Assembly: GCF_013403875.1 (NCBI RefSeq)
Contig: NZ_JACBNX010000002.1
Location: 157,889 to 189,888 of the forward strand
From: Burkholderia guangdongensis
Lineage (GTDB): Bacteria; Pseudomonadota; Gammaproteobacteria; Burkholderiales; Burkholderiaceae
Length of the DNA: 32,000 nucleotides
Direction of reading: 5' to 3'
A program made the translations under genes and the position numbers. Of the stretch, positions 6,632 through 20,855 are shown one piece after another (within the stretch, counting starts at the first letter, position 1; every line of letters starts with the position of its first letter). The notes under the pieces were generated by a model. That model was given only the letters and a program-made list of their open reading frames with translations, did not search any database and was not told where the DNA came from.

Positions 6632-6773
6632 GCCCAGATAACCTCATGTATACCGTACACACGGGAATCACGAAAAACGGACGTCTTTGAAATTGGCCTC
6701 TCTGTGACGACGTGCGAAAGAGGCCAAGACCTGCAAACGTCGGTCCAACCGACTTTTCTGCTGCGAATATTGG

Positions 6774-7660: not shown

Positions 7661-7757
7661 TGTTGTATGTGGCTGATGGTCTAGCCACTAACAATATCAC
7701 GGCGCAGATGTGAGCGGCGCGTCCCGCATGCCTACGGCCCTACTGCCAGAGATCGGC

Positions 7758-8201
7758 TTACTTGGCGACGAAGCCCGAACGCATTTGACTACTGATGGCG
7801 TCGATCTGCGTATCGAGCTCGCCGGCCTCAACTGCTGCCTTGAGCGTCTCGAGCGTCGGGATCAGCTCGGCGAGCGTGCCGACTTCGATAGCCGTCTTGC
7901 CCTTTGCAAGCTCCAGCGTTTTTGTGCCATAGCGGACCGACATGCAGACTTTGCCGCTTTCGGCGGTCCACCACCACGCACGAACGCGCTTCTGTACTTC
8001 CACGTTGCGGCGCTCGCCGGTTTCTGCATTCTTCACCGAACGGAACTTCGTAGGTGAGAACGTCGTTCCCGCTTGCTGAGCCTTCGCGAGTTCCGTTTGC
8101 TCCCAGATCTTCGCGATCAAACGGTTACGACGTTGCACGATTTGCGGCATCGAACCGGGACGCTTGGCAGCGACGAGCTTTAGATTGGTGAGCGTGCTCA
8201 T
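7758..8201 (-). CDS. conserved-looking hypothetical protein (147 aa)
   Basis: The ATG has a good aggag SD 6 nt upstream, and the sequence is non-repetitive (..RVRAWWWTAESGKVCMSVRYGTKTLELAKGKTAIEV..). It looks like an island- or prophage-associated family of unknown function, but I cannot name it reliably. Confidence 0.55.
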   Translation of the reverse strand: MSTLTNLKLVAAKRPGSMPQIVQRRNRLIAKIWEQTELAKAQQAGTTFSPTKFRSVKNAETGERRNVEVQKRVRAWWWTAESGKVCMSVRYGTKTLELAKGKTAIEVGTLAELIPTLETLKAAVEAGELDTQIDAISSQMRSGFVAK

Positions 8202-8313
8202 ATTGGACTCCTGAGTTATGTGGTGGAGTGAGGATGTAGCCGCTTACGGCTGAAATCAACAGGATTTTTTACGCTATATCGAGCGCTTCGTCGTGGTCTT
8301 GCTAAATAAGGCT

Positions 8314-8814
8314 ATGGAAAAGAACATAAACATAAAAGTAGCGACACGGGACTGGATGATTCAGTACGCGCCATATTTAACGCATGCTGTAACGCTCACC
8401 ATGAAGCCGTATCGTGAAATCATGACCAACAAGGGACTGACTACACAGCGCTTGACAGAGATCGAAGCGAAAGAGAATTTCCGACAGTTCATTCGACGCC
8501 TGAACGCAGCTGTATATGGAAATGCAGCCAAGCGATTCGGTACGAGTGTCTATGTAATTCCTGTTATCGAAGGCATCGTAACGGACAAGCTTCTGCACTA
8601 TCACTGCATGATGGGGAATTTTCGAGGCGGAGTCGATGAGGCATTGATCGCTAGTGCGATTCGAGCCGCATGGCTTCAAACGGATTTCGGCAACTTTGAG
8701 GTCGACATCAAGCCTCTGACATCGGACGGCTGGATCGACTACATCCTCAAGGAAGTCGGCATAGGCGACGCCGACAACGTGGACTACGGAAACGTCCACG
8801 TACCAAAGGACTAA
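8314..8814 (+). CDS. small HUH-motif protein (rolling-circle Rep-like or Y1 transposase/RAYT-like)
   Basis: The ORF track starts at GTG 8293; the first ATG is 8314. Three motifs occur in the order and spacing typical of HUH endonucleases: HAVTLTM (beta-strand, FLTLT-like), VIPVIEG...LLHYHCMM (HUH) and WIDYILKE (catalytic Tyr, YxxK). The functional call is by motif only. Confidence 0.5.
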   Translation: MEKNINIKVATRDWMIQYAPYLTHAVTLTMKPYREIMTNKGLTTQRLTEIEAKENFRQFIRRLNAAVYGNAAKRFGTSVYVIPVIEGIVTDKLLHYHCMMGNFRGGVDEALIASAIRAAWLQTDFGNFEVDIKPLTSDGWIDYILKEVGIGDADNVDYGNVHVPKD

Positions 8815-8835
8815 CGCTCCGATATAGAAACGTCT

Positions 8836-8872
8836 AGCTGCGTGATGACCAAAGGTCCTCGCAGCTTTTATT
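8836..8872 (+). terminator. hairpin plus T-tract after the HUH gene
   Basis: agctgcg (8836-8842) pairs with cgcagct (8860-8866) and is followed by tttatt. The loop is long (17 nt), so confidence is modest. Confidence 0.4.
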
Positions 8873-9198
8873 GCGAAGAGCTTCGTTACATGAGGTTCTT
8901 TAATGATTTCTTGCGGTTATAGATCTCAATGAATAACTCCTCCGATGGATCTTGTGACGAACTACTCGAAGAAAATAAAGACATCTATATGTGAGAAATA
9001 CGACGAACAAGGAACGGATAGAGCATGCGACAGAAAGCAACCAGATGTTCGTAGTCGAAGACACCGCATGCAGCAACAACTAGTTCGTCCACGTCCTCTC
9101 CTACTTCCTTCCCTACTACTGCTCCTACTTCAACGGCGCTACTTGCAAGCAAATTGTTCGGTTAGCGGGCAATTTCCGGCAGCGGTGCGCACATTACT

Positions 9199-9215
9199 TG
9201 TCGGTTTAACCGACA
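9199..9215. repeat. palindromic element copy 1 (TGTCGGTT-T-AACCGACA)
   Basis: A perfect 8-1-8 palindrome in the long non-coding stretch ~160 bp upstream of the short recombinase gene. Confidence 0.8.
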
Positions 9216-9378
9216 TCTCCCATCAGCAGCAAGCTAAAACCAAATGAAATAGCAAAAACATTTGGTTATCACGTAGGTGCTTGATTTCTCTGGCCTCTGC
9301 CCGATGTCATTTGGTTGTTGATCCGTATAACTAAAGAATACATCCTCTGGACATGAATTCTCTTTGTTCGGAGGGGAA

Positions 9379-9945
9379 ATGAAGCAGGCCAAGACATTCA
9401 CTGAAAAGGAACTCAAGCAGGTACTGACCTACATCTCGATGCGTCGGCATGTGCTGCGCAATCGGGCGATGGTGCTGCTGACGCATTGGGCCGGTATGCG
9501 TGTCGGCGAAGTAGCCGCATTGCTTGTTGGGGACGTGCTCAACGCAGATGGCTCGATCAAGTCGGAAATTCGACTTGCTCCTGAGCAGACCAAGGGACGT
9601 CACGCACGCACGGTCTTTCTCGGGCAGAAGTTGCGACGCGAACTGGTTGCCTATGTCGCCTGCCTCAAGAATCCGCGACCGGAGCGCCCGCTGTTCTATA
9701 CGCAGAAGCGGGCTGGGTTCACTGCCAACACGCTATGTCAGTACTTCCATTGGCTGTACAAGGATGCGGGCATTCAGGGGGCGAGCAGCCATTCAGGCCG
9801 ACGCTCGTTTATCACGAATCTGGCGAACAAGGGCGTAGGTGTTCGCGTGCTGATGTCTCTTGCGGGGCATCGGGACATTTCGACTACGCAGCGGTACATC
9901 GATGTCAACGACGAGATGCAGCGCAAGGCCGTGGATCTCGTGTGA
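9379..9945 (+). CDS. short tyrosine recombinase (catalytic domain only, ~188 aa)
   Basis: ATG 9379 is preceded by ggagggg. The catalytic residues appear as WAGMRVGEV (R), K in EQTKGRHARTVFL, HSGRRSF (H-x-x-R) and GHRDISTTQRYI (H...Y). There is no N-terminal core- or arm-binding domain. Confidence 0.8.
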   Translation: MKQAKTFTEKELKQVLTYISMRRHVLRNRAMVLLTHWAGMRVGEVAALLVGDVLNADGSIKSEIRLAPEQTKGRHARTVFLGQKLRRELVAYVACLKNPRPERPLFYTQKRAGFTANTLCQYFHWLYKDAGIQGASSHSGRRSFITNLANKGVGVRVLMSLAGHRDISTTQRYIDVNDEMQRKAVDLV

Positions 9946-10187
9946 TGAGCCGATACAGTCCTGCCCAGATAGAAGCACGTCGGCAGCTTGCCTTGGCGTT
10001 CAGGCGCGAGAGCAGGCCAGACCTGACGCATGTATTGGGTAGAGGATGGTCGCTCGGTCAGGAGGTGCGCCGACTCGACGACCGGCAGTATTTCGAGAGG
10101 GCCGTTCAGTTATTCAACCGGCGCATTGGCATTGCGAGGTTTGCGCCGTTGAACAAGGAGGACCTGTTCAGAGCAGCAGGCGTTTAG
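9945..10187 (+). CDS. hypothetical 80-aa protein, translationally coupled to the short recombinase
   Basis: Its ATG overlaps the recombinase stop (TGATG at 9943-9947). It is on the same strand with no gap. I recognise no family. Confidence 0.5.
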   Translation: MSRYSPAQIEARRQLALAFRRESRPDLTHVLGRGWSLGQEVRRLDDRQYFERAVQLFNRRIGIARFAPLNKEDLFRAAGV

Positions 10188-10209
10188 GAAACTCGCGAAG
10201 AATAAACAC

Positions 10210-10413
10210 ATGGCAATTTGTCCCGGTCGTATCCAGAATTACGCAGGTCAGCACAGCGGAAACGTCTACCGCTGCACCAAGTGCGGGGCCGTTGGCTGCA
10301 AGGATCATCGTTGCACGAACCGCAACTGGAGCAATGGCGGCGGTTGCTTGCATTGCGGTAGTCACGGAGCGATGAAATCCTTGTGGTTTCATCCCTCGGT
10401 CCAAGACGAATAG
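10210..10413 (+). CDS. Cys-rich mini-protein, paralog 1 (67 aa, 7 Cys, two CxxCG knuckles)
   Basis: MAICPGRIQNYAGQHSGNVYRCTKCGAVGCKDHRCTNRNWSNGGGCLHCGSHG... About 44 of 56 aligned residues are identical to the ORF at 12892..13068, and all 7 Cys are conserved. The DNA differs largely at synonymous positions, which supports real coding. Confidence 0.65.
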   Translation: MAICPGRIQNYAGQHSGNVYRCTKCGAVGCKDHRCTNRNWSNGGGCLHCGSHGAMKSLWFHPSVQDE

Positions 10414-10428
10414 TCTTGTAGCTATCCG

Positions 10429-10451
10429 AATTGTCGTTTTAACAGACAATT
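10429..10451. repeat. palindromic element copy 2 (AATTGTCgTTTTAACaGACAATT)
   Basis: It starts 16 nt after the stop of Cys-rich paralog 1. The outer 7-bp arms are perfect and there are two inner mismatches. Confidence 0.7.
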
Positions 10452-10601
10452 TGCACGTCGATTGCGCCGAACGCTGCGCAAGTGCTTTCTCTGGCAAGTT
10501 CGATTATCGGACCTGCGCCTGCTAAATTTCTGGCTCGCTGGTAGTCGTTGCATGTAGACTGCGAGCCCAACAGCATCGACCACACAACGCGGGGACAGCA
10601 G

Positions 10602-11729
10602 TTGAGATACAGGGGGATCGCCGCCGCTGTCAGCGGCATCGCGTTTGCGACGGCTTGCCAGCATGCTTCAGCCCAAAGTTCGGTCGCGCTGTATGGTATG
10701 ACGGAAGTCACGCTGCGCTACTTGAACAATGATGATGCTCAGAACAACGGTCGTCTGTTCATGACGAATGGGGCGATCATCAATAGTCATGTTGGGTTGC
10801 GCGGTGCGGAGAATTTGGACGAGGGCCTTAAGGCTGAATTCCAGATCGAGAGCAACTTCGATCCACAGGACGGTGCACTGAGCGACAGTGGCCGTTTTTT
10901 CGGAAGCGCGGCGAATGTCGGCCTGTCAGGTGAATTCGGAACGGTAACGCTCGGCCGTCAAGACACGCCGCTGTTTGACAAGCTGGTTACGACGTACGAT
11001 CCGCTGACCTATGCGAACTACCCGGAGAACTCATGGCTGCCATGGGCGCTCGAAGCGGGCCTTGCGGCCGACAATTCGATTAGATACACAGGGCAGTTCG
11101 GCAGGCTGTTTGTCGGTGCGATGTACTCGTTCGGCAGTAACTACGAGATAGGCGGTGCTGGTGGATTCTCGGGCCAGGTGCCCGGCCACTTTGCTGCGGG
11201 AAGTCTTGCGAACCTACTGGTGTCGTATTCCGCTGGTCCGCTTAACGTTGCGGCTGGCGTCCAGCAGGTACGCGACAACTCAAATAACCGGCAAACGGTC
11301 TTCAACGTCGATCTGATGTATGAGCTGCGTCGAGTGAAGCTTTACGCTGGTTGGCTGCATTCGCAAGACAATACGGGCCTTGTCGATATGCTGCTTGCCG
11401 AGCAACAAATCCCGGACATCAGTCGGCTGAAGGACACGAACCGTATCGATGACGGGCCATTTGCCGGATTTGCGTGGCGGATTGCTGCGCCGTTGCTCTT
11501 GTCCACTGCGTTTTATTACGATCACATGCGCAACGCTGCGACGGGCAACGGTACGTTGGGAAGCGGTAGTCGATCCACCCTTGTCGAGCTGGCTGAGTAT
11601 GAGCTTTCAAAGCGTACCGAAATTTATTGTACGGTGGATTTCAACAGGGTGACCGGTGCCGCAAGTGTGGAATTGCCGGGGCGTGGAAATCAGACGGGAG
11701 TCGCGATAGGGATGCGGAGCTTTTTCTGA
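10602..11729 (+). CDS. Gram-negative general porin (OmpC/porin_4-like)
   Basis: ORF 10548..11729. The likely start is the in-frame TTG at 10602, which gives the signal peptide MRYRGIAAAVSGIAFATACQHASA|QSSVALYG. The protein has an alternating beta-strand pattern and a C-terminal ...GMRSFF. Confidence 0.85.
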   Translation: MRYRGIAAAVSGIAFATACQHASAQSSVALYGMTEVTLRYLNNDDAQNNGRLFMTNGAIINSHVGLRGAENLDEGLKAEFQIESNFDPQDGALSDSGRFFGSAANVGLSGEFGTVTLGRQDTPLFDKLVTTYDPLTYANYPENSWLPWALEAGLAADNSIRYTGQFGRLFVGAMYSFGSNYEIGGAGGFSGQVPGHFAAGSLANLLVSYSAGPLNVAAGVQQVRDNSNNRQTVFNVDLMYELRRVKLYAGWLHSQDNTGLVDMLLAEQQIPDISRLKDTNRIDDGPFAGFAWRIAAPLLLSTAFYYDHMRNAATGNGTLGSGSRSTLVELAEYELSKRTEIYCTVDFNRVTGAASVELPGRGNQTGVAIGMRSFF

Positions 11730-11737
11730 TCTGATAG

Positions 11738-11754
11738 TGTCGGTTAGACCGGCA
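11738..11754. repeat. degenerate fifth copy of the palindromic element (TGTCGGTTaGACCGgCA)
   Basis: It matches the element consensus at about 14 of 18 positions. It lies between the convergent stops of the porin and MarR-like genes. Confidence 0.4.
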
Positions 11755-11766
11755 GATGCAAAAATG

Positions 11767-12114
11767 TCAGGTACCCTTCGTGGCCTTCGTGAAGGCTTCG
11801 GCGAGTTTGTCAAAGTGTCGGAGGGCCGCAGGCGTCAGCTCGATCTGCTTGCGACGAGCGTCTTCGGTGTCGCCGAGCATGATCCAGCCTTTGTCGCGCA
11901 TGGACGTAATGCGGGCGTGTAGCGTGGCGGGCGAGCCGAGCTCCGAATGAGCCATCATGTCCCGAACGGAAAGGCGCTCCTTCGCCTGCGTTGCACGGGC
12001 GATGAACTCCAATATCCGCTCTTCGAGCGGATCAAGCGACGGCAACGATGGCATCCCGCGCAACGCTTCAGTCAGTTGCAGGAATCGAAGGTAGATGTCG
12101 GCAGGGCGTGTCAT
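11767..12114 (-). CDS. MarR-family winged-helix transcriptional regulator
   Basis: ORF 11767..12144 has a TTG start; the first ATG is at 12114. L..EERILEFIA......LSVRDMMAHSELGSPATLHARITSMRDKGWI......DARRKQIELT fits the MarR wHTH pattern. Confidence 0.6.
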   Translation of the reverse strand: MTRPADIYLRFLQLTEALRGMPSLPSLDPLEERILEFIARATQAKERLSVRDMMAHSELGSPATLHARITSMRDKGWIMLGDTEDARRKQIELTPAALRHFDKLAEAFTKATKGT

Positions 12115-12211
12115 TGCGTATGTTCCGAACGCGACAACTTCCAAGCCGTGACAGGTCGTAGGACTATCATCCGAATCGGCCAGAACAGGGTATCCAACAT
12201 TTTATACGACA

Positions 12212-12769
12212 ATGTCTAGCTTACGTTTACATTTCTGGTCGATTGCGGGGACGGTCGTCGTGTTCATCCTGTCGTTGTGGTTGAACGAAGTGATCTTCAC
12301 GCATAGCGAGTTCGTTCGCGGCGTGAACTGGATTTACCTACCGTCAGGCGTGAGACTCTTGAGCACGCTGTTGCTGGGCGGCGATGGCGCAATCGGTCTG
12401 CTGATTGCGAGCTTGCTTGTCAATTTCTTCTACTTTTTCCCGCATGATCCGGTGCGCTCGATCGCAGGAGCAATCATTTCAACGGTCGCACCCTATGCGG
12501 TCTATCGCCTTGCAATAGAGTGGTACGGGCTTCGTGCGTCATTGACGAACCTTACGCCGAAGCGGTTGCTCCTGTTGGCGATTGCGTATTCCGTTGCGAA
12601 TCCGTTGCTTCTTCACGTGTGGTTTTTCCTGCAAGGTAACACGCACAACTTTGGCGAGCGATTGCTGGTGATGATTGTCGGTGATCTAGCCGGTGCGTTG
12701 ATCGTGCTGTATGTAGTAAAGGGGGCAATTTCGCTATTGCGAGTGCGACATAGCGCGCCGATCAATTAG
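12212..12769 (+). CDS. polytopic inner-membrane protein of unknown function (185 aa, ~5-6 TM)
   Basis: Hydrophobic segments run throughout (VVVFILSLWL, LLSTLLLGGDGAIGLLIASLLVNFFYFF, LLLLAIAYSVANPLLL, VGDLAGALIVLYVV). The gene is divergent from the MarR-like gene. Confidence 0.6.
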   Translation: MSSLRLHFWSIAGTVVVFILSLWLNEVIFTHSEFVRGVNWIYLPSGVRLLSTLLLGGDGAIGLLIASLLVNFFYFFPHDPVRSIAGAIISTVAPYAVYRLAIEWYGLRASLTNLTPKRLLLLAIAYSVANPLLLHVWFFLQGNTHNFGERLLVMIVGDLAGALIVLYVVKGAISLLRVRHSAPIN

Positions 12770-12823
12770 GCAGCGTGGAAGCGTCTTTAGTTGAGAGTAC
12801 CCATGACGCCCTAGATAGGCGGT

Positions 12824-12852
12824 CCGGATTGTCAGTTTAACCGACAATCCGG
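12824..12852. repeat. palindromic element copy 3 (CCGGATTGTCaGTT-T-AACCGACAATCCGG)
   Basis: A 14-1-14 palindrome with one mismatch, between the convergent stops of the membrane protein gene (12769) and Cys-rich paralog 2 (12892). Confidence 0.8.
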
Positions 12853-12891
12853 GATTGTTTGATGTCTTTTGTATCGGATGGCAAAGCGAAA

Positions 12892-13068
12892 CTACACGAC
12901 TTTCATGGTACCGTGACTGCCGCAGCGTAGGCAGCCGCCGCTCTGACTCCAATTATGATTCGAGCATCGGTGATCTTTGCAGCCGACCGCGCCACATTTG
13001 GTACAACGGTAGACGTTCGACGCATGCTGGCCGGGATGATTGGGGATGCGGCCGGGACAAAGAGCCAT
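12892..13068 (-). CDS. Cys-rich mini-protein, paralog 2 (58 aa)
   Basis: The ATG (comp. 13066-13068) is preceded by ggag at a 6-nt spacing; the track start at 13080 is a TTG. MALCPGRIPNHPGQHASNVYRCTKCGAVGCKDHRCSNHNWSQSGGCLRCGSHGTMKVV is paralogous to 10210..10413. Confidence 0.65.
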   Translation of the reverse strand: MALCPGRIPNHPGQHASNVYRCTKCGAVGCKDHRCSNHNWSQSGGCLRCGSHGTMKVV

Positions 13069-13110
13069 ATTTTTCTCCAAATAAATTGGGGTATTGGGAG
13101 TGCGATAAAA

Positions 13111-13365
13111 TTAAGGATTGTTTTTTAACGATTTGTATTCGACATCATCGATCAGATACGCGCTGCAAAGCTTTTCTTCCGTCAGCGCGTTACGTGTACC
13201 AAATGACGTCAGAAGGGGCGTCGATGCAGGCGCATGACGTACTCCGGCGTGCGCGCCTTCTGTGCCGGCAATAATTCCCAGCACAATAAGCGTGATCAGC
13301 CACCAAAACATTCTTCGACCAAATAGCATGATCAGCACAATTACAGCAAGTAGAAAAATGATCAT
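13111..13365 (-). CDS. small membrane protein (84 aa, two N-terminal TM helices)
   Basis: MIIFLLAVIVLIMLFGRRMFWWLITLIVLGIIAG... It starts 14 nt after the stop of the upstream TPR protein gene, on the same strand. Confidence 0.5.
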   Translation of the reverse strand: MIIFLLAVIVLIMLFGRRMFWWLITLIVLGIIAGTEGAHAGVRHAPASTPLLTSFGTRNALTEEKLCSAYLIDDVEYKSLKNNP

Positions 13366-13379
13366 TCTACGACCTGGCT

Positions 13380-15038
13380 CTACTGGAAGTTGGGTCGTCT
13401 ATTCTCGGTAAACCACGCTTTACTTGCTGCATACATATTGATCACCTCCGGATCCTTTTCCTCCGATAATTTTGAGGTGATAAAGTTGAGGGTTCTTTGC
13501 TTGTCGCTCGAGAACTGATATGCCAACCACATGGCCTCCAAGGCTTGATCTGGTCGGTGTTCTTTCGCGATCGTTACAGCTAAAGGTGCCCAAACGCTGG
13601 TTCGCCTTGGATTGAGAGTCAGCGCCAGTACGGCGGTGTCCTCGGATTTTGCGAGTTGTCCGTCAGCGGCGTAAGCATAAGACAGGTTGCTTACAATCTC
13701 CACGTCACCAGGGTCGGTCTGATTTGCTTGGGTGAGCAATTTGACTGCATCGTCCGGTCTTGAATCCTTTAGCGCGTTCAAGGCATCTACATTGAATTTT
13801 CGTGCGACTGCCTTGTCGCCGCGAGTCGGTTTGGAGAGAGAGTCAATAGTGTTCGCTGCCTGCATGGCTCCCGCGAGATTTTCCGACTTGGCGAAGGCCA
13901 GCATGGTCTTGGCGCAATCAACTGCGGTCGCGCACGTAGCAGTCTGATCTGTAGTGGCCACCTGCGTTGCTGTCGCCGATGGAGGCAAGGAGGGCGCGAT
14001 TGATGATGTTGTGACGCCATTGCTTGTAGGTAAGGGGGCGGCATCGTGCGACGCGGTGCTGGCTGGTGTGATGGTGGCGGTACCTGCTGACGGCACGCCA
14101 CTCGACTTGACCTCCGCCGGTGCGGTCGCCGCGGCGGTTGTCTCGGAATTAGTGGTTGGCGCACTGGTAGCGGTTGCGGAAGCGGACGCGCGCGGCGGGA
14201 ATGTGTCCGTCGACGCAACAATAAACTTCGTGGCAGGCTCCTCAGTCGAGGACTCCGACGTCCAGCTACCTCCCGCGCTGTGTTGCAAGTATCGTGAGAC
14301 TGAACCGTTTGCCATAATGTAATTACACTCTTTGTCTATTACGTTATGAAATTGGTCAACATAGTGGTAGTCAATAGTCGGGCCTGACGGCGGAAATCGT
14401 CTGAACTCGGTGAGCGTGGCGTATGGCCGGTCCATCGGCCAATATGCATGTTCCAGGCAGTCATCTTTATAAATTTCGTTTTCTTTTGCGATTCGAGCGG
14501 ATGTGGCAGCGCTGTTTTCAACGTGATATATCTTCGCATCTCGGACGTGCCACTGAAAGCTGTTTTCGAAGAACCCAGGCTCGTCCAAAACTCCGGAAAA
14601 TGTCACCTCTGTACTGTCGGGGGCAGATTTGTATGGTGTTGGGTCTATCCCTTTAAGCTCAAGTTTCTCACCTTGTGGAGTCTCAACTATCAAGAACTTA
14701 TTTTGTGTGTCAACTATATCGGCATGCCAAAAAATATGCTTTCCTTGGAATTTGCTGTGATCGAGCAGCGTTGAAGTGAACTCCTCCTGTGAGATCTCAC
14801 TTTTTGGTATTTCTTCAATAGGTGTATCGCGTGATCGGCGATTTGAACTGTGAAATGTTGCGCCTATAATCGGGCTCAATATGAATACGCCAATGAAAAT
14901 TAGGTAAAGCTTGCGACCTACTGGCGTAAGGTGAGAGCTTATGTTGCGTATTGAGAAACCATTCCAGTAGCTAATATTGGGTGATCGAAAGCAGGCAATT
15001 ACAATAAGCATTCCTATGAGTCCGAGCGCGGAGATCAT
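13380..15038 (-). CDS. membrane-anchored protein with Ser/Thr/Ala/Pro-rich linker and C-terminal TPR-like repeats (552 aa)
   Basis: The ATG has an aagga SD. There are two N-terminal TM segments, a globular middle region, a low-complexity region of over 100 aa (ASASATATSAPTTNSETTAAATAPA...) and C-terminal TPR-like helices (..AVKLLTQANQTDPGDVEIVSNLSYAYAADGQLAKSEDTAVLALTLNP..). Confidence 0.7.
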   Translation of the reverse strand: MISALGLIGMLIVIACFRSPNISYWNGFSIRNISSHLTPVGRKLYLIFIGVFILSPIIGATFHSSNRRSRDTPIEEIPKSEISQEEFTSTLLDHSKFQGKHIFWHADIVDTQNKFLIVETPQGEKLELKGIDPTPYKSAPDSTEVTFSGVLDEPGFFENSFQWHVRDAKIYHVENSAATSARIAKENEIYKDDCLEHAYWPMDRPYATLTEFRRFPPSGPTIDYHYVDQFHNVIDKECNYIMANGSVSRYLQHSAGGSWTSESSTEEPATKFIVASTDTFPPRASASATATSAPTTNSETTAAATAPAEVKSSGVPSAGTATITPASTASHDAAPLPTSNGVTTSSIAPSLPPSATATQVATTDQTATCATAVDCAKTMLAFAKSENLAGAMQAANTIDSLSKPTRGDKAVARKFNVDALNALKDSRPDDAVKLLTQANQTDPGDVEIVSNLSYAYAADGQLAKSEDTAVLALTLNPRRTSVWAPLAVTIAKEHRPDQALEAMWLAYQFSSDKQRTLNFITSKLSEEKDPEVINMYAASKAWFTENRRPNFQ

Positions 15039-15160
15039 TTTTTTCCTTTTTCAAAGTGATTCGGACTTTCGTCAATGTGGTAAAATGATTGTGAGGATTG
15101 AGGTGATATAGAATTATTTAGGTATTCGTGGTAAAGCCCCGGAGGATTTTAGAGTGTAAG

Positions 15161-15811
15161 TCAAAGTTTGCGTGGCGTGCGGCAATGACTGCGATCAGAT
15201 AACCGCTCGTACAAGTAGGGCCAATCGACCGCAAGCAAAGGTATGGTCCGGTCGTTTCGGGATCGGTATGCGAAGAATCGTATCCAGCCATCCAGAAAGA
15301 TGCTTTTGCCTGGACTGAGCAAGCACGGTGGCCTATCAACAAGTGGAATCGTCACAGGTGGGAATAGTGCAGCGACCTTCTCAAGCGCGTGTGACGCGTT
15401 CCTTTCCGTCTGAAGATTGCTTGCTCCGCTAAGCAGATAGCGTTGCACGGCTTCTTCGACACTGAGCGTATCGAGTTCGACGTAAGACGCACGAACTCCG
15501 CCGAGAGCGGATTGACATGTGGATCTCGTATCAGAGTGTCCCGCCATCCGACTTAGCACGGAAAGCTGGACGTAAGAAGGCAGGGAGCCAAAGTCCGTCT
15601 CGCCACATTGCAGCGTGTCTCGAAACGTGGGGTAGGCTAGGAGCCATGCGCTGATTCTGGCATGGCCTGGATGAGACCGATCGGCCGGACATGCCGGCAG
15701 GTCTGGCTGATGCGCGCGCATGGCTTCCCCGTAATTGTTATAAAAACTATAACGCCGTGCGGCGCCGCGCGCAAGACTGCAATGCACCGGCAGGCTCGCT
15801 TGCTTGCGCAC
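15161..15811 (-). CDS. hypothetical protein (weak call; GTG start at 15811, alternative ATG at 15721)
   Basis: This is the longest ORF in the segment and shares the strand of the upstream ATPase cassette. I recognise no motifs, and there are overlapping ORFs on the other strand. It could be a pseudogene or non-coding. Confidence 0.3.
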   Translation of the reverse strand: MRKQASLPVHCSLARGAARRYSFYNNYGEAMRAHQPDLPACPADRSHPGHARISAWLLAYPTFRDTLQCGETDFGSLPSYVQLSVLSRMAGHSDTRSTCQSALGGVRASYVELDTLSVEEAVQRYLLSGASNLQTERNASHALEKVAALFPPVTIPLVDRPPCLLSPGKSIFLDGWIRFFAYRSRNDRTIPLLAVDWPYLYERLSDRSHCRTPRKL

Positions 15812-15835
15812 GCCGACGGGGTGAATGATTGGCGG

Positions 15836-15856
15836 AACGTAGGTGACACCTACGTT
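15836..15856. repeat. perfect 21-bp palindrome AACGTAGGTG-A-CACCTACGTT
   Basis: A 10-1-10 perfect inverted repeat in the 109-bp gap between the ATPase gene stop (15921) and ORF 15161..15811. No T-tract follows on either strand. Confidence 0.75.
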
Positions 15857-15920
15857 TGGCAGGTTCCGAGCGACCCGCCCGAACGGTGGAACTGCCCGGG
15901 ACGGGTGCGGATTTGCTTGC

Positions 15921-16604
15921 TTACGGCTGGTAGGCGATGGCCCGAAGCTGAGCGCTGTTGTTCAGTTGATAGGCGACGTCCTGACTATTATCGAGAATTT
16001 CGCGGGGATTATTGCCCTTGGCGATAATACGGTTTCGAATGAACTTGTCGCTAATACTTCCGGCATTCGGAACGCCTGCTTCTGTAAGGGCAGTTCGTGC
16101 GAGCGGGATCCAAACATCCATATTGGACGGCTGAAATGAGATGCACTTGCTCCGCGACACCACACCGGGATCGATTCTGTCGATGTGGTTTGTGGTCATG
16201 ATGAAAACCGCATTGAATATGCTGGCGCCGTAAGTCTGGTTCATCACACTTTTCAGCTGTCTCATCGCGACAGGCGTGAGGTTGTCGGCCTCGTCAAGAA
16301 TAATGTAGTGGAACGTGCCGCTCAAGGTAGCATAGCTGATCTGAGTGTGGATCGAATTAATCAGCGCAACATCGTTATTGCCGGACATGCAGTCTTCGTA
16401 ACGGATGTTTGGCATATCGGACGAGTACTTTACTTCTATGCCTACCGGCAGAAGTTTTGCACAGGTCGTCTTTCCGGTTCCATATGGACCATACAGGATG
16501 ATGCCGTTAGTTCCATTTGCCGGAAACACGTAACACGGTTCAATGAGGCGCTTGATTGACGACTCGGTATTCGCTGAAGGAAAGGTCAGGTTGTTGATGA
16601 TCAT
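15921..16604 (-). CDS. truncated clamp-loader-like (RFC small subunit / T4 gp44-like) AAA+ ATPase, 227 aa
   Basis: Motifs: Walker A GIILYGPYGTGKTTCAK; Walker B HYIILDEADNLT; sensor-1 FIMTTN; and the SRC-like motif DPGVVSRSKCISF. Order and spacing match the clamp-loader ATPase module, but the C-terminal collar domain appears to be missing. Confidence 0.75.
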   Translation of the reverse strand: MIINNLTFPSANTESSIKRLIEPCYVFPANGTNGIILYGPYGTGKTTCAKLLPVGIEVKYSSDMPNIRYEDCMSGNNDVALINSIHTQISYATLSGTFHYIILDEADNLTPVAMRQLKSVMNQTYGASIFNAVFIMTTNHIDRIDPGVVSRSKCISFQPSNMDVWIPLARTALTEAGVPNAGSISDKFIRNRIIAKGNNPREILDNSQDVAYQLNNSAQLRAIAYQP

Positions 16605-16658
16605 GATAAGTTATCCTATATAAATGGGCGTCTAGGCCTTCCCAAACACCCGCATTGA

Positions 16659-17426
16659 TTAGTTGATGCTCAGGTTTTCGTCCGATTCAGCAGATGCGTT
16701 GGCCGATTGGGGCTGATTCGCATAGGCCGCGTACGCTCGGGTGAGTACACCTTGGTCATTAACGATCGCCCGGATAGAGACGCTGCCGTCTGGATGACAC
16801 GTGACAATCGCCGTGCGTTCGCGATCTACCTCAACGGGCGGCAAGGCATCCTCAAGCTCCTGCGAATCGACCGTGCAGAGGATGTTTGTCCCGATTCGTC
16901 TGCGACCTCGTTCGGCAAGAATTGACTGGGAGACCGGACTCTTTGCGGGGCGGGGATTGCCTTTGGCATCGTAGGTTTTCCTTACCTTCTCGATACCGCC
17001 TTCATTTTCAAGCCAGGCGCAGAATGAGTTTTCGGTCTGGCCCATCACATCAGCGGTTGTTAGCACGAGGGCATAACCGGCAGCAAGCTGCCGGTTATCG
17101 CTTACGATCAGCTTGGCCATCATAGTCAGAACACTCGTTTCCGATGTGACTCGAATTTTTTCCTGCTCGCACTTGGCTTCGAGAAATTGCTTGCTTTCGA
17201 CGCGCGCCGCATTCGGAGAATTTTTGTAGTCGCTCTGATACAGGCCGAGAATCTTGGCGAGCACTTCCCAAAGGAAAACTCTGGAGCGGGTGTGCTCGTC
17301 TTTTAGCTTGAAAACCCTGTCGAGAAAGAATGATGCGGGCGAGATATCGATTTTTCGCTGAACCGAATCGATGGGTGACGGTGTGGCAGTTTCGAAATCG
17401 ATTTCGGTGGATAGTGCTTGAACCAT
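16659..17426 (-). CDS. hypothetical protein (255 aa), upstream partner of the AAA+ ATPase
   Basis: The ATG has an aggag SD at 8 nt. It lies 54 bp upstream of the ATPase gene on the same strand. The N-terminal half looks helical. I recognise no family. Confidence 0.6.
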   Translation of the reverse strand: MVQALSTEIDFETATPSPIDSVQRKIDISPASFFLDRVFKLKDEHTRSRVFLWEVLAKILGLYQSDYKNSPNAARVESKQFLEAKCEQEKIRVTSETSVLTMMAKLIVSDNRQLAAGYALVLTTADVMGQTENSFCAWLENEGGIEKVRKTYDAKGNPRPAKSPVSQSILAERGRRRIGTNILCTVDSQELEDALPPVEVDRERTAIVTCHPDGSVSIRAIVNDQGVLTRAYAAYANQPQSANASAESDENLSIN

Positions 17427-17523
17427 GAAAATGCTCCTGTAAAGTTGAGGAAATCGCCGATCAGTGAATCGACGAAACGAACTTTATTTCGGAGCGATTT
17501 TCAGAAATATCCCACGCGCTACG

Positions 17524-18198
17524 TCACGTACGCCGTTTGCCCGCAAGCGGCTCATTTTTTCGAGCAAACGTCATACCGTCCAGCCACTTGGTGATGGTGC
17601 GCTCGGCCTGAGCTTCCGATAGATTGACGCCTTGCGCTTGCGATTCCCTGAGAATCTGGACTTTGATCGACAAAGCCGCATTTCGCTTGCTGGGATAGTT
17701 GCCCGATGCAGCCAGTTCACGCGCAAGTCGGCGCAATGGTTCATATTTTGCGTTGCGCTCTGTGGAGCCGGATTTGCTACGTGCAGAGATGACACCGGCT
17801 AGCGCTGGTTCCAGAGCGAATACGCCCTCAGCGAAACCTAGAAGGTATTGGGCGTTAGCGATGTGGGACCATCCCACGCTTTCGTGGCCTTCTTCGCTGG
17901 CGTTTCCAGCGTCGATCACATGAGCGCAGGCATGGCAGATCGCCCGCATGTAAATCACAAACGAATGCTGGGTGTGGTTCTTGAACGCGGGAACTTCGAT
18001 CCGCGCAGGACTCTGAGCCGACGACTGCGCTATGGGCACGAGGATCTCGCTTTCGAAGTCCTCGGCCGACTTGTCTGGGTTCATCACAATGTAGAGCCGG
18101 AACAACGCTTTGATGATCGCGTCGGCGGCCACGTCGATCGAATCGAAGGTGGGAAGGGGTTCCCCGATTTTTCTGGATTGGGTGTGGATGTCGGTCAT
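17524..18198 (-). CDS. hypothetical protein (224 aa), first gene of the minus-strand cassette
   Basis: ORF 17524..18303 has a TTG start; I trimmed it to the first ATG at 18198 (MTDIHTQSRK...). The C-terminal ..KRNAALSIKVQILRESQAQGVNLSEAQAERTITKWL may be a helix-turn-helix. I recognise no family. Confidence 0.5.
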   Translation of the reverse strand: MTDIHTQSRKIGEPLPTFDSIDVAADAIIKALFRLYIVMNPDKSAEDFESEILVPIAQSSAQSPARIEVPAFKNHTQHSFVIYMRAICHACAHVIDAGNASEEGHESVGWSHIANAQYLLGFAEGVFALEPALAGVISARSKSGSTERNAKYEPLRRLARELAASGNYPSKRNAALSIKVQILRESQAQGVNLSEAQAERTITKWLDGMTFARKNEPLAGKRRT

Positions 18199-18346
18199 GT
18201 ACGTGTGTTGGTAAGGCCCGTGCGGAGTTGAGCATTGCGACCGTGCCAATGGTGGCGCTTTGGCGCGTTGTCTAGCGTTGCACTTGCTTCGGCTGCAAAC
18301 CAACGCAGCTAGACGCTTGGTGGTTCTTCTGGCGAGCCGTAGCGCA

Positions 18347-18369
18347 AATTGTCGGTGTAACCGACAGTT
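18347..18369. repeat. palindromic element copy 4 (AATTGTCGGTgTAACCGACAgTT)
   Basis: It lies ~150 bp upstream of the 224-aa gene start, near the right end of the island. Confidence 0.75.
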
Positions 18370-18400
18370 GCAGGCAACCAGGGGCGCTCGGACTTGATCA

Positions 18401-18646
<246 letters not shown>

Positions 18647-18647
18647 C

Positions 18648-18952
<305 letters not shown>

Positions 18953-18999
18953 CCGGCCGGGGCGGCCGGAGGTGGCCGAGGAGGGCGCCCTGCGTCGCC

Positions 19000-19038
19000 G
19001 CCCTCGTGCCCCTCGTGTGCCCCTCGTGCGCCCCTCGT
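19000..19038. repeat. imperfect tandem array of CCCCTCGTG (about 4 units)
   Basis: gccctcgtg cccctcgtg (tg) cccctcgtg (cg) cccctcgt, in the ferredoxin-hisC convergent intergenic region. Confidence 0.8.
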
Positions 19039-19046
19039 CCCGCTGA

Positions 19047-19087
19047 GCCCGATCAGCCCGATCAGCCCGATCAGCCCGATCAGCCCA
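19047..19087. repeat. perfect tandem array of GCCCGATCA x4 plus a partial unit
   Basis: Units lie at 19047, 19056, 19065 and 19074, followed by gccca. The last full unit contains the hisC stop codon (comp. 19080-19082). Confidence 0.9.
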
Positions 19088-20147
19088 GCAGGTCGCGCAG
19101 CGCCGCGACGAACGTGTCGCACTCGGCGTCGGTGCCGACCGTGATGCGCAGATGCTGGTCGATACGCGGCAGCTTGAAGTGCCGCACGAAAATTTCCTTC
19201 TCCTTGAGCCGCGCGGCGATCGCAGCCGCATCGTGCGCCGGATGGCGCGCGAACACGAAGTTCGCGGCCGACGGCACGACGTCGAAGCCGAGCGCCTGCA
19301 GCGCGCCCGTGAGCCGTTCGCGGCTCGCGATCACCTTGCGCCGCATCCCGTCGAAATACGCGTCGTCCTCGTACGCGGCCTGAGCTGCGGCCTGAGCGAG
19401 GCGATCGAGCGGATACGAGTTGAAGCTGTCCTTCACGCGATCGAGTGCCTCGATCAGATCCGGATGGCCGAACGCGAAGCCGACGCGCATGCCCGCGAGC
19501 GCGCGCGCCTTCGACGTCGTGTGGACGACGAGCAGGTTCGGATAGCGATCGATCAGCGCGATCGCCGATTCCGCGCCGAAGTCGACGTACGCCTCGTCGA
19601 TCACGACGGCCGACGACGGATTCGCGGCGACGATCCGCTCGACGTCCGCGAGCGGCAGCGCGCGGCCGGTCGGCGCGTTCGGGTTCGGGAACAGCACGCC
19701 GCCCGCATCGCCGAGATAGTCGTCGACGCGGATCGAGAAGTCGTCCGCGAGCGGCACCGCTTCGTATTGCACGCCGTACAGGCGCGCGTAGGTCGGATAG
19801 AAGCTGTACGTGATGTCCGGAAAGCGCAGCGGCCGGTCGTGCTTCAGTAGCGCGTGGAACGCGTGCGCGAGCACCTCGTCCGAGCCGTTGCCGGCGAACA
19901 CCTGAGCGGGCGTCAGGCCGTGATGCGCGGCAACCGTCTCGCGCAGCCTGCGCGCGAGCGGATCGGGATAGCGGCGCAATGCTTCGCCGGTAGCCCCAAG
20001 TTCGCGCGCGATCGCCGCGACGACGCACGGCGAAGGCGGATAGGGATTTTCGTTGGTGTTCAGCTTGACCGGGTGCGCGAGCGCGGGCTGCTCGCCCGGC
20101 ACGTAAGGCACGAGTTGCTGAACGACGTCGCTCCAGTAACGGCTCAC
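19080..20147 (-). CDS. hisC: histidinol-phosphate aminotransferase family (class II PLP aminotransferase)
   Basis: 355-aa ORF with ...[14 protein letters not shown]..., ...FPNPNAPTG... and the PLP lysine context [15 protein letters not shown]. Confidence 0.85.
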
Positions 20148-20216
20148 CGCTTCGCTCCTGACGGTAAAAACAGCGAGCTTACCTCATGCGCGCCGCGCGT
20201 AGCGACGCACCGGCGC

Positions 20217-20819: not shown

Positions 20820-20855
20820 GACGTTTCGATGGCGGCTACGAGCCGCCAGGCGCGG

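Follow-up and report, generated by a model that had tools for sequence, protein, structure and literature searches.

Which process places near-identical palindromes at several positions within one genomic island? In the window, the 32,000-nucleotide stretch of Burkholderia guangdongensis DNA analysed here, an earlier note had described five copies and offered three explanations, namely recombination sites bounding cassettes and served by an adjacent short tyrosine recombinase, REP-like hairpins serviced by an HUH protein, and operators of a MarR-like regulator or hairpin terminators. According to our analysis, the palindromes are real copies of a site at the joints between swappable modules in many Burkholderiales islands. 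We posit that the site is a putative crossover site for conservative site-specific recombination that exchanges these modules, with the short recombinase as candidate enzyme, and we assign this reading a probability of about one half.

Island layout and palindrome copies

The low-GC island measures 13.2 kb (5501-18720), sits in the 5' end of a ferredoxin gene and holds every copy. Its left boundary, where the GC drop begins, is 97% identical to 18682-18720 (direct-repeat family D7). The consensus of the palindrome is TTGTCGGTTWAACCGACAA, and the name PAL is given to the conserved 19-21 bp site T-TGTCGGTTWAACCGACA-A. The features are as follows:

5501-5539, attL, left boundary: 39-nt direct repeat with the original ferredoxin 5' end
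5624-6631, + strand: island integrase, full-length tyrosine recombinase (Pfam PF00589, 5.6e-29)
6738-6754, PAL0: CGTCGGTCCAACCGACT, degenerate, between the integrase gene and the next gene
7758-8201, - strand: DUF6641 protein (Pfam PF20346)
8314-8814, + strand: small HUH endonuclease (motifs VTLT, HYH, YxxK)
9152-9174: AATTGTTCGGTTAGCGGGCAATT, degenerate second palindrome, 44 nt upstream of PAL1 (direct-repeat family D2)
9196-9218, PAL1: core 9199-9215, TGTCGGTTTAACCGACA, perfect 8-1-8 (consensus search)
9379-9945, + strand: short tyrosine recombinase, 188 aa (PF00589 over residues 6-179)
9945-10187, + strand: 80-aa ORF, its start overlapping the recombinase stop codon
10210-10413, + strand: Cys-rich protein, 67 aa, last gene of the rightward recombinase operon
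10429-10451, PAL2: AATTGTCGTTTTAACAGACAATT, two changes against the consensus
10548-11729, + strand: porin, cargo (PF13609, 5.8e-39)
11738-11754, PAL3: TGTCGGTTAGACCGGCA, two changes against the consensus
11767-12144, - strand: MarR-like regulator, cargo (weak PF12802 and PF01726 matches)
12212-12769, + strand: MASE1-like membrane protein, cargo (PF05231)
12824-12852, PAL4: CCGGATTGTCAGTTTAACCGACAATCCGG, 14-1-14 with one mismatch (folded)
12892-13080, - strand: second Cys-rich paralogue, in inverted orientation, closing the long leftward operon (inverted repeats I1 and I3)
13111-18303, - strand: leftward gene set (84-aa, TPR, 216-aa, clamp-loader-like AAA ATPase, 255-aa and 259-aa proteins)
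18347-18369, PAL5: AATTGTCGGTGTAACCGACAGTT (consensus search)
18682-18720, attR, right boundary: inside the 5' end of the intact ferredoxin gene (18686-18952); family D7

All five palindromes of the earlier note are present where it had placed them, and in the gene contexts that it gave. With up to 3 mismatches allowed, the 23-mer consensus yields 6 strand matches at 4 sites versus 0.00 in 100 shuffles, and the 15-base core yields 13 strand matches against 0.62 +/- 0.89 expected (shuffle maximum 4), so that a chance origin of the window copies is excluded. The high-GC backbone (1-5500 and 18721-32000, 18.7 kb) holds no copy at up to 3 mismatches, as had been claimed; TGTCG-N7-CGACA at up to 1 mismatch finds just 3 further matches there, which is chance level. 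The count of five overlooked two weaker island copies, PAL0 and the one at 9152-9174, and both positions are kept in related islands (PAL0 at 5448-5464 in L003 and 9723-9739 in L230; the other at about 9774-9800 in L003).

Read from left to right, the island consists of the integrase module, PAL0, variable genes with the DUF6641 and HUH genes, and PAL1; then the recombinase, the 80-aa ORF, the Cys-rich gene, PAL2, the porin and PAL3; and then the MarR-like and MASE1-like genes, PAL4, the leftward operon, PAL5 and the island end. Two copies are upstream of genes: PAL1 by 164 nt (short recombinase) and PAL5 by 44 nt (259-aa protein, last of the leftward genes). PAL5 is also 77 nt inside the conserved end of the island. 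PAL2 is found 16 nt past the first Cys-rich gene and PAL4 40 nt past the second, while PAL3 and PAL4 each lie between convergent stop codons. The two PAL2 changes fall on core positions 6 and 13, where they disrupt two inner pairs without compensating each other.

Many of these elements have counterparts elsewhere. The integrase is 88% identical to that at the same coaD-fdx site in B. cenocepacia (L003), whose single Cys-rich protein shares 74% identity with the 67-aa one. The 80-aa ORF is kept in L003, L005 and L230 and had no family match in profile searches, the porin is 70% identical to its P. elongata homologue (L131), and the AAA, 255-aa and 259-aa genes belong to the backbone of related islands. 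An identical PAL1 core stands at the identical distance from the recombinase in B. cenocepacia and B. gladioli islands, and PAL3 is matched in position by copies in L131 (6276-6292, perfect) and L240 (11432-11448). PAL4 forms the right edge of the porin/MarR/MASE1 module; its equivalent in L131 follows the MASE1 gene and is itself followed by unrelated genes.

Distribution of the site and variation at its junctions

The same 19-mer, typically in one to four copies a locus, was found again in related islands from at least eight genera (Polynucleobacter, Janthinobacterium, Duganella, Massilia, Cupriavidus, Paraburkholderia, Magnetospirillum and Sphingorhabdus). Its neighbours are homologues of the DUF6641 protein and of the 188-aa tyrosine recombinase, the latter just 37-75% identical to the window's in those eight genera. 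Across 122 unique instances, many of them chosen by a perfect 19-mer so that conservation is partly by construction, the value is 93% or higher at every position between -8 and +8, and 74-81% at -9/+9. At the centre, 136 of 142 sites have T or A, with switches between the two from one orthologous junction to another, and the PAL alignment contains no covarying stem beyond +/-10. Gene 3' ends are the preferred context, with 38 convergent versus 11 divergent arrangements.

The 120 genome stretches with matches represent 120 different contigs, and the REP-like abundance that the earlier note had weighed against restriction to islands was never seen. Matches outside the island family lie mostly within long ORFs, and about 10 of some 20 intergenic matches have island proteins in the same 8-kb block. 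PAL is confined to islands, and the palindrome is neither strain-specific nor REP-like.

At PAL, sequence relationships change abruptly. Alignments show that homology stops at the palindrome: among 135 sites, 454 pairs have only one 100-nt flank in common versus 123 with both, and one flank family is joined via PAL to 13 different partners. A homology breakpoint occurs within 40 nt of 50% of PALs, whereas for other intergenic gaps the share is 27% (odds ratio 2.7, p = 1e-5). In L003, island homology ends just before PAL2, the blastn alignment stopping at window position 10376.

Three comparisons of filled and empty sites show modules of 0.45-2.6 kb between two copies where relatives have a single copy. 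L182 carries 1.5 kb with two genes between two PALs, whose outer flanks are joined by one PAL in L178, L202 and L045; a 455-bp Cys-protein unit lies between two PALs in L196, with one PAL between the same flanks in six loci; and the single PAL5 of the window corresponds to two PALs enclosing 2.6 kb between the same neighbours in C. pauculus (L048). The duplicated sites of the two metagenome cases (L182 and L196) are in direct orientation, and the possible crossover interval there spans about 30 bp including PAL. The 166-aa gene of the L182 insert also lies between two other PALs in L172.

Proposed crossover at the site and competing explanations

These breakpoints and PAL-bounded modules make recombination sites the best supported of the three earlier explanations. 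Excision or inversion of 10452-12823 and 9216-18346, which the earlier note had envisaged, was found in no relative compared. No inversion or reciprocal-exchange sets were found either, with zero 4-cycles in the junction graph, and a search for a circular cassette contig found none. The variable cargo without PAL boundaries in L003 and L230 also counts against crossover at PAL, as does the repeat around PAL that reaches 45-90 bp in some lineages, since RecA-dependent recombination between such repeats could yield the same variants.

We nevertheless favour a site-specific over a homologous mechanism. PAL would consist of two 6-bp arms (TTGTCG and CGACAA) around a 7-bp overlap (GTTWAAC), an anatomy of 6-7-6. 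Circular DNA with one PAL might integrate at an island PAL, and a segment between two PALs could drop out; by such integration and loss, islands would gain, lose and swap modules at PALs. The closest analogues are the dif modules of Acinetobacter and integrons, and the PAL system failed the membership test for either.

The strongest competitor, which we consider unlikely, holds that PAL is bound by a dimeric island-encoded protein, with DUF6641 as prime candidate. Such a protein would insulate or regulate transcription units, much like KorB at the operators scattered over IncP plasmids, and the mosaics would be secondary, via homologous recombination between repeats. The symmetric A/T centre and the conservation of sequence at all 19 positions are what a dimer site on double-stranded DNA typically shows. 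DUF6641 is the island protein most often near PAL (26 of 75 palindrome-selected metagenome loci; 31 loci in the clustering), its gene is directly flanked by PALs in L035 and L236, and its N-terminus is invariant and basic (K-R-P...R-R-N-R). A regulatory role would also fit the PALs retained in an island without the short recombinase (L172), a conserved TTGACA about 20 nt beyond PAL in freshwater islands, and a PAL about 42 nt upstream of the MarR-like gene start in five loci (L125, L201, L204, L212 and L220). However, gene 3' ends are the wrong place for operators, the AF2 model of DUF6641 (pLDDT 81) has neither a recognisable DNA-binding fold nor a structural match, and the three perfect PALs of L172 occur without DUF6641. 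Shared sequence of 17-23 bp is too short for efficient RecA recombination. The window copies share just that much, yet PAL5 marks an insertion/deletion relative to L048, and the narrow crossover intervals of the filled and empty sites likewise speak against a homologous origin.

It is more doubtful still that the palindromes are RNA hairpins, acting as terminators or RNA-stability elements at operon ends and travelling with the modules. PAL2, PAL3 and PAL4 lie 9-61 nt past stop codons, 3'-end contexts predominate across loci, and the hairpins fold at -8.9 to -21 kcal/mol, but three of the five are not significantly stabler than shuffles (z -1.2 to -1.6). Among the window copies only the degenerate PAL0 has a T tract and, with its A run, stem and T run, scores as a terminator. 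None of the five copies has such a tract, so that termination fails as a general explanation, and the consensus flanks (T before the palindrome, A after it) are opposite to those of a bidirectional terminator. Conservation is moreover in sequence rather than structure, PAL1 and PAL5 lie upstream of genes, Rfam gave no match, and a terminator would leave the identity of the sequence across genera unexplained.

Hairpins of REP-like or IS200-like type, nicked and serviced as single strands by the 8314-8814 protein in a REPtron-like arrangement, are very improbable and already disfavoured by the distribution data. This protein is probably a Rep-like initiator, as its motifs are invariant and its model bears a weak resemblance to circovirus Rep, a RAYT and ISDra2 TnpA; it has no match to Pfam Y1_Tnp. 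Its gene lies between PAL0 and PAL1 in Burkholderia-type islands, but a link to the palindrome is not supported. A homologue search yielded only 14, and those with a name all belong to Burkholderia or Paraburkholderia. PAL is present without the gene in islands of many further genera, and L220 has no room for it, with only about 330 bp from DUF6641 to the recombinase. Besides the lack of a covarying stem and of abundance in any sampled genome, no nick site can be exposed in a loop of only 1-3 nt, and the one PAL kept at empty sites is the signature of conservative recombination rather than of HUH peel-and-paste transposition.

MarR proteins bind palindromes of 16-20 bp, and in the window, L131 and L240 PAL adjoins the 3' side of the MarR-like gene, as well as lying upstream in the five loci named above. 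An operator of this regulator nevertheless fails as a general explanation and is the least probable reading, because the gene occurs in only 5 of the 75 loci and is missing from islands with perfect copies (L003, L230 and L095), and the nearest window copy sits past its stop codon, not at its promoter.

The short tyrosine recombinase as candidate enzyme

If PAL is a crossover site, the enzyme is most likely the island's 188-aa recombinase, as gene proximity and catalytic residues suggest. This protein is a catalytic domain alone, without a core-binding domain, to which the short arms of PAL would be suited. It aligns to residues 103-273 of a 292-residue XerC-like protein (4a8e), and its best stretches against XerA and XerD are likewise in the catalytic region. 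Residues R41, K72, H138, R141, H164 and Y173 are all present, as read from the sequence, and more than 7,800 homologues exist, mostly of 188 aa. The large integrases vary between islands (335, 411-433 and 477 aa) and use different att sites while PAL stays constant, so PAL is not their site.

Some evidence stands against this part of the earlier explanation. L172 carries its three perfect PALs between its integrase and the adjacent murein-transglycosylase-like gene and has neither the recombinase nor DUF6641, and in the palindrome-selected loci the recombinase is near PAL in just 8 of 75, versus 26 for DUF6641. Canonical PAL is absent from L001 and L008-L017, whose recombinases are 92-94% identical to the window's; the palindromes that they do have share the GGTTWAACC centre but not the arms. 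No PAL was found near distant homologues on Legionella and Azospirillum plasmids.

Seven recombinase lineages of Burkholderiaceae and Oxalobacteraceae were fetched by protein, not by motif, and in five of them a canonical PAL occurs no more than 1 kb away, three times at exactly 164 nt upstream. In several freshwater lineages, PAL lies 7-44 nt past the recombinase stop codon. A cluster upstream of the Magnetospirillum recombinase keeps the TGTCG...CGACA arms while the 7-bp centres differ, as expected for arms plus an overlap region.

The island and its palindromes

In the window, G+C content falls from about 64-73% in the backbone to about 47-59% between about 5.5 and 18.7 kb, and this low-G+C stretch is edged by a 39-nt direct repeat whose two copies are 97% identical. 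The repeated sequence corresponds to the 5' end of a 4Fe-4S ferredoxin gene located downstream of coaD, and a tyrosine integrase gene lies directly inside its left copy. Given the drop in G+C, the direct repeat and the integrase inside the left end, the stretch is a 13.2-kb integrated island. Its features are as follows, with PAL standing for a conserved palindrome of 19-21 bp:

5501-5539 and 18682-18720, 39-nt direct repeat
6738-6754, PAL0, degenerate palindrome 3' of the integrase gene
7025-7660, T5orf172/MUG113 (GIY-YIG-like) gene
7758-8201 (-), DUF6641 gene
8314-8814 (+), HUH-like gene
8815-9380, 567-nt non-coding region
9152-9174, degenerate palindrome, 44 nt before PAL1
9199-9215, PAL1
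9318-9350, conserved non-coding block
9379-9945 (+), 188-aa tyrosine recombinase (short recombinase)
10210-10413, Cys-rich (zinc-ribbon-like) gene
10429-10451, PAL2
11738-11754, PAL3
12824-12852, PAL4
12892-13080, second, diverged Cys-rich gene
18347-18369, PAL5
18686-18952, ferredoxin gene

We compared the island with contigs of B. multivorans, B. cenocepacia, B. gladioli, P. caledonica, Massilia and soil metagenomes that encode close homologues of the short recombinase, a protein with more than 7,800 homologues, most of them 188 aa long as well. According to this comparison, the island is a member of a large family whose core is conserved and whose cargo varies. The left part runs from an integrase and a small gene through variable genes to the DUF6641 gene, the HUH-like gene (a slot filled in Burkholderia and Paraburkholderia only) and the short recombinase, with or without an 80-aa ORF and a Cys-rich gene. 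It is followed by variable cargo, a 137-144-aa protein, a clamp-loader-like AAA ATPase, two proteins of about 250 aa and the island end. The cargo includes EcoRV- and BstXI-type restriction-modification, SIR2-HerA, RES, PLD, DEAD helicase and OLD-like ATPase genes and, in the window and its relatives, porin, MarR-like and MASE1-like genes. The coaD-fdx insertion site is common to islands of four species. The first variable slot, occupied by the T5orf172/MUG113 gene in the window and by an OLD-like AAA_15/DUF4435 protein or a 750-aa protein in relatives, is probably a second cargo hotspot. In three JGI soil metagenome contigs (comparison loci L008, L011 and L012), island genes are tandem or circularly permuted (for example 144aa-AAA-...-Int-...-recombinase-RM-144aa-AAA), which suggests tandem islands, an episomal or concatemeric state, or an assembled circular form.

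The five palindromes claimed by an earlier note, PAL1 to PAL5, are all present in the window, and none was found in shuffled sequence. Their absence from the backbone also holds, even with the pattern relaxed to TGTCG-N7-CGACA. The two weaker island copies, at 6738-6754 and 9152-9174, had escaped that note. B. cenocepacia and B. gladioli have an identical PAL1 core, which precedes the recombinase by exactly 164 nt, as in the window; the DNA around it is only about 75% identical. In PAL2, two changes break two inner pairs; a compensatory change was considered for this copy and rejected, since both changes disrupt pairing. Rfam gave no match at E <= 1 around any PAL copy.

Apart from the palindromes, the non-coding region that separates the HUH-like gene from the recombinase holds several conserved blocks. 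One of these, TTGATCCGTATAACTAAAGAATACATCCTCTGG (9318-9350), lies just upstream of the short recombinase and is near-invariant (3 substitutions) in four islands with flanks only about 70-75% identical; it has no Rfam match and may be a promoter, a leader or the site of another protein. Each of the two Cys-rich genes ends a long island operon and is followed by a palindrome, and freshwater islands carry another small Cys-containing gene about 60 nt from PAL. Such genes may be functionally paired with PAL.

Sequence and distribution of PAL

Among 122 unique instances of PAL, conservation is at least 93% at positions -8 to +8 and 74-81% at -9/+9, values biased by the requirement for at least one perfect site per locus. 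Pairing at +/-10 amounts to 52% versus 32% expected and is at chance beyond. At the centre, 72 sites have T, 64 have A and 6 have C or G, with switches between T and A within orthologous junctions. Because outer pairing is at chance and the centre flips, PAL is a conserved sequence rather than a conserved hairpin. A long covarying hairpin was rejected on the same 122 instances, although a few copies have arms of 12-14 bp.

Two loci without canonical copies (L001 and L008) hold palindromes at the homologous positions, with the same GGTTWAACC centre and other arms. Island loci totalling 192 kb contain this 9-mer 12 times, with about 8 independent occurrences, versus 1.5 expected. In a Magnetospirillum cluster upstream of the recombinase, TGTCG and CGACA are kept around differing 7-bp centres. 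Arms and centre can therefore vary separately. Core sites of tyrosine recombinases consist of inverted arms around an overlap of 6-8 bp, which is identical between partner sites, and the PAL consensus fits a 6-7-6 reading of this kind, TTGTCG-GTTWAAC-CGACAA. A distant recombinase subfamily (35-37% identical) has two palindromes about 104 nt apart, upstream of the gene at a constant spacing of about 1.25-1.45 kb, at these positions:

L073, 969 and 1073
L180, 1899 and 2003
L197, 6989 and 7095

One genome per species was scanned with TTGTCGGTNNAACCGACA, and at least 120 stretches with a match were obtained, each on a different contig and together a sample rather than a census. Among the matches listed, most are single matches within long ORFs of unrelated phyla, which we take as chance, and TTA/TAA-centred ones are enriched. 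The latter are mostly short-ORF, apparently intergenic matches from Burkholderiales, plus Magnetospirillum and Sphingorhabdus, and about 10 such blocks hold homologues of the window's DUF6641, recombinase, AAA ATPase, 259-aa protein or porin/MarR/MASE1 genes. A metagenome scan with the 19-mer found 75 loci, many with 2-4 perfect copies. DUF6641 was near PAL in 26 of these loci, the recombinase in 8 and a MarR-like gene in 5; most loci in the whole comparison are short metagenome contigs of few, related freshwater lineages, so that counts are not independent. PAL is a conserved feature of this island family, and the 19-mer offers a cheap annotation marker for the family and its module boundaries. 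No PAL was found near distant recombinase homologues on Legionella or Azospirillum plasmids or on one IMG/VR contig. Among the journals covered by our search, no paper with the PAL motif or DUF6641 was found.

In IMG/VR, the PAL core has 17 matches, several of them downstream of C4 or sRNA-Xcc1 RNAs. In five (L138, L141, L148, L149 and L153; 28-66% G+C) the 17-mer lies inside phage Bro-N/antirepressor genes, where it encodes G-V-G-L-T-D, and in L138, L149 and L153 it lies downstream of one of those RNAs. A phage link was rejected, the palindrome being antirepressor coding sequence in the matches examined, some of them by sequence and several others by reading frame. Most genome matches outside Betaproteobacteria are likewise coding. 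The viral-contig matches are a coding coincidence and a trap for motif searches.

Module junctions and candidate proteins for PAL

Among pairs of the 135 PAL sites, 454 have one 100-nt flank in common with the other unrelated, and 123 share both flanks. Alignments are conserved up to the palindrome and show several unrelated continuations past it, with about 25 more conserved bases on one side in the freshwater lineage. The end of the DUF6641 module forms one flank family that is joined via PAL to 13 partner families. A blastn homology breakpoint lies within 40 nt of 50% of PALs versus 27% of other intergenic gaps, and breakpoints within 30 nt amount to 7.2% at PALs versus 1.8% at random positions. 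These alignments indicate that PAL marks module junctions.

Filled and empty sites were found at several of these junctions. In L182, two direct PALs enclose a two-gene segment of 1.5 kb, and L178, L202 and L045 have the same outer flanks with one PAL; the 166-aa gene of this insert lies again between two PALs in L172. Similarly, a 455-bp unit with a small Cys-containing gene lies between two PALs in L196, and six loci have one PAL between the same flanks. PAL5 of the window is single, while in C. pauculus (L048) a PAL-2.6 kb-PAL arrangement, with genes for a ParA-like ATPase and a 327-aa protein, is located between the same ferredoxin-side and 259-aa-gene flanks. The porin/MarR/MASE1 module recurs in P. 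elongata (L131) with copies at the PAL3 and PAL4 positions and different neighbours, and in the spacer after the MASE1 gene PAL is the sole element shared with the window, the rest being unalignable. In P. caledonica (L240 10630-10800), the porin gene is 5'-truncated and a 113-nt duplicate of the 3' end of the MarR-like gene lies beside a degenerate palindrome, 63 nt after the recombinase, which looks like a rearrangement scar at a PAL.

Since empty sites keep one copy of PAL, we posit conservative site-specific recombination. To the reading of PAL as a recombination site as a whole we assign a probability of about 0.5. The earlier note had envisaged excisable or invertible cassettes. Modules that are present or absent at PALs agree with the first of these, but no inverted variant of any PAL-bounded segment was seen, the junction graph of 140 sites (a small, fragmentary sample) contained no inversion-type 4-cycle, and no circular cassette contig was found.

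All island-encoded recombinases are of the tyrosine type. The large integrases differ between lineages in size (335, 411-433 and 477 aa) and in att site and are therefore unlikely to be the PAL enzyme. The short recombinase aligns with the catalytic domains of XerC-like, XerA and XerD proteins, is without a core-binding domain and, as read from its sequence, has R41, K72, H138, R141, H164 and Y173. A PAL usually lies near its gene, in freshwater islands 7-44 nt downstream of it. Judging from Cre and Xer structures, arms of 6 bp could be covered by a catalytic-domain-only protein. The link loosens in places, because the recombinase is near PAL in 8 of 75 loci, L172 has three perfect PALs and no short recombinase, and the canonical arms are gone from islands whose recombinase is 92-94% identical to that of the window. 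We consider it possible, at somewhat less than an even chance, that the short recombinase is the PAL enzyme. The stop codon of its gene overlaps the start of the 80-aa ORF (ATGA, 9942-9945), and its homologues on Legionella plasmids (37-42% identical; L247 5570-5571) have a small ORF immediately 3' and parB alongside, which hints at a two-protein unit with plasmid-resolution ancestry.

A further-reaching proposal, which we hold to be less likely than not, is that PAL and this recombinase represent a new, so far undescribed cassette-exchange platform, similar to integrons and dif modules but differently built. Such a platform would use a symmetric double-stranded site of 19-21 bp in which 6-bp arms enclose a 7-bp overlap, and no core-binding domain would be needed to recognise it. 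Via PAL, the islands of Burkholderiales would put together and exchange modules for defence, restriction-modification and regulation, and even integrase modules. Should PAL be a recombination site, the islands, whose cargo across hosts includes SIR2-HerA, RES, PLD, OLD-like ATPase, restriction-modification and T5orf172 genes, would be built of exchangeable parts with one universal connector. This would account for the fast cargo turnover and for islands with the same core in combination with different integrases and chromosomal sites. It would also add a third natural cassette system to integrons and dif modules, and the very small recombinase (188 aa) and very short site might be of interest to tool builders.

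The main rival explanation holds that a DNA-binding protein, with DUF6641 as the foremost candidate, binds PAL. DUF6641 is the protein best associated with PAL, and a regulator's site would provide the first functional handle on this family. Its confident AF2 model (pLDDT 81), however, has no known DNA-binding fold, and the bias of PAL to gene 3' ends speaks against operators: with heuristic gene calls, 38 copies lie between convergent, 43 between tandem and 11 between divergent genes, PAL thus preferring operon ends over promoters. The idea of DUF6641 as an obvious DNA binder was dropped, as neither fold nor sequence gave a PDB match. Homologous recombination between PAL-containing repeats could mimic the variants in those lineages in which the repeat extends over 45-90 bp; in L182, copy differences confine the possible crossover to about 30 bp including PAL. 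Where PAL precedes the start of its gene by 42 nt, the MarR-like regulator may act locally, but with this gene in 5 of 75 PAL loci it is too rare for a general partner, and the earlier suggestion of MarR operators fails as a general explanation.

Also suggested before was that the HUH protein services PAL copies as REP-like hairpins. The protein is real, with invariant VTLT, HYH and YxxK motifs and an AF2 model (pLDDT 88) that has weak fold matches to circovirus Rep, a RAYT and ISDra2 TnpA. Only 14 homologues were found, however, and PAL thrives in islands without such a gene and without room for one; most PAL-bearing islands lack the gene, and a REPtron-like arrangement is not supported. With the conserved 567-nt non-coding neighbour, which may be the origin it uses, the HUH protein would more likely initiate replication of the excised island than act on PAL. 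As intrinsic terminators, proposed for the five copies as well, they lack the combination of GC stem-loop and T tract: the tract is present in 0/5, the consensus 3' flank is A-C-T-T, hairpins of 3/5 are no more stable than shuffled sequence, and a terminator scan flags the degenerate copy at 6739-6753 only. PAL as an integrase att site was rejected, because the ferredoxin att core has just an ACCGAC half-site in common with it, which we judged to be chance.

Known systems and minor features of the island ends

Modular exchange at short recombination sites is by analogy of a known general kind, and the closest functional analogues of PAL are the dif modules of Acinetobacter plasmids and integrons. 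Modules bounded by dif sites (pdif modules) are present or absent between related replicons, with the site left behind (PMC13141974, PMC9947245), and modular excision at an 8-bp palindrome is known from the Streptomyces island PAISt (PMC4057263). PAL modules resemble dif modules in that short conserved sites edge one to few genes and in that these modules occur in varied contexts, with one-flank homology, 13 partners and filled and empty sites. PAL differs in being near-perfectly symmetric and 19-21 bp long, with no similarity to the 28-bp, 11-6-11 XerC/XerD dif; read by eye against the dif consensus, it has no dif-like arms. Its carriers are integrated chromosomal islands instead of Rep_3 plasmids, they often encode their own catalytic-domain-only recombinase instead of relying on host XerCD, and the alternation of site orientation was not seen among PALs.

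Like integrons, PAL islands have a tyrosine recombinase gene beside an array of units separated by palindromic sites, these sites lie mostly at gene 3' ends, and the genes carried are adaptive ones, here for defence, restriction-modification and regulation. Unlike attC, an imperfect palindrome of 57-141 nt with conserved structure that acts as folded single strands, PAL is short and conserved in sequence. PAL modules are often multi-gene and in either orientation, and the recombinase lies inside the array rather than at one end. PAL is no attC site, and the short recombinase is no IntI-type integrase, which would be a full tyrosine recombinase with an IntI-specific insertion; NCBIfam integron integrase models score the short recombinase at 46 bits (cut-off 265) and 25 bits (cut-off 435).

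In its size class (about 190-200 aa) and in having several sites of about 19 bp per locus with the gene beside one of them, the recombinase is similar to FimB/FimE and the Rci shufflon. The FimB/E-type model NF007370 gave a weak near-full-length match (29 bits versus a cut-off of 221) and NF007371 scored 23.5 versus 222, which does not place it in the FimB/FimE invertase family. In addition, the segments are whole gene modules and not promoter or gene-tail segments, and inverted variants of them were not found. Cre/loxP, ResD/rfsF and XerS/difSL are further pairs of a single recombinase with a site right beside its own gene, and the parB neighbourhood of the Legionella plasmid homologues and the permuted metagenome copies, a hint at an episomal form, are likewise reminiscent of multimer resolution. 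For resolution a single site suffices, and additional ones would lead to loss of DNA; PAL islands have several sites per element, at module joints and tied to structural variation.

REP/RAYT (REPtron) systems and IS200/IS605 ends share with PAL a family of imperfect palindromes near a small HUH protein. REP elements occur in tens to hundreds of copies across the intergenic regions of a genome. Such abundance was not seen for PAL in the sequence sampled, with 0 copies in 18.7 kb of backbone and each of the at least 120 stretches on a separate contig. In most islands PAL also occurs independently of the HUH gene; it lacks a conserved tetranucleotide at its flanks, and one copy stays behind at empty sites. 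The HUH model matches RAYT 4er8 at E 0.07 and TM 0.35, weaker than its circovirus Rep match, and the protein lacks the Pfam Y1_Tnp match expected of a RAYT-type transposase.

Further repeats were noted at the ends of the island. A 70-nt inverted copy of ferredoxin codons (18434-18503 versus 18715-18784, 94% complementary) lies within the island close to its end, some 210 nt before the intact ferredoxin gene, and is also found in the B. cenocepacia (L003) and C. pauculus islands. It could mediate RNA pairing with the ferredoxin 5' end or be a relic of an inverted att event. The 17-mer TGCAACACCTATGCAAC forms a direct repeat (5614-5630 and 18566-18582) about 75-100 nt inside both island ends; its right-hand copy is kept in L003, and the repeats may be arm-type binding sites for the island integrase. 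In the backbone, about 5 copies of the 9-nt tandem repeat CCCGATCAG (19039-19086) lie between the ferredoxin and aminotransferase genes.
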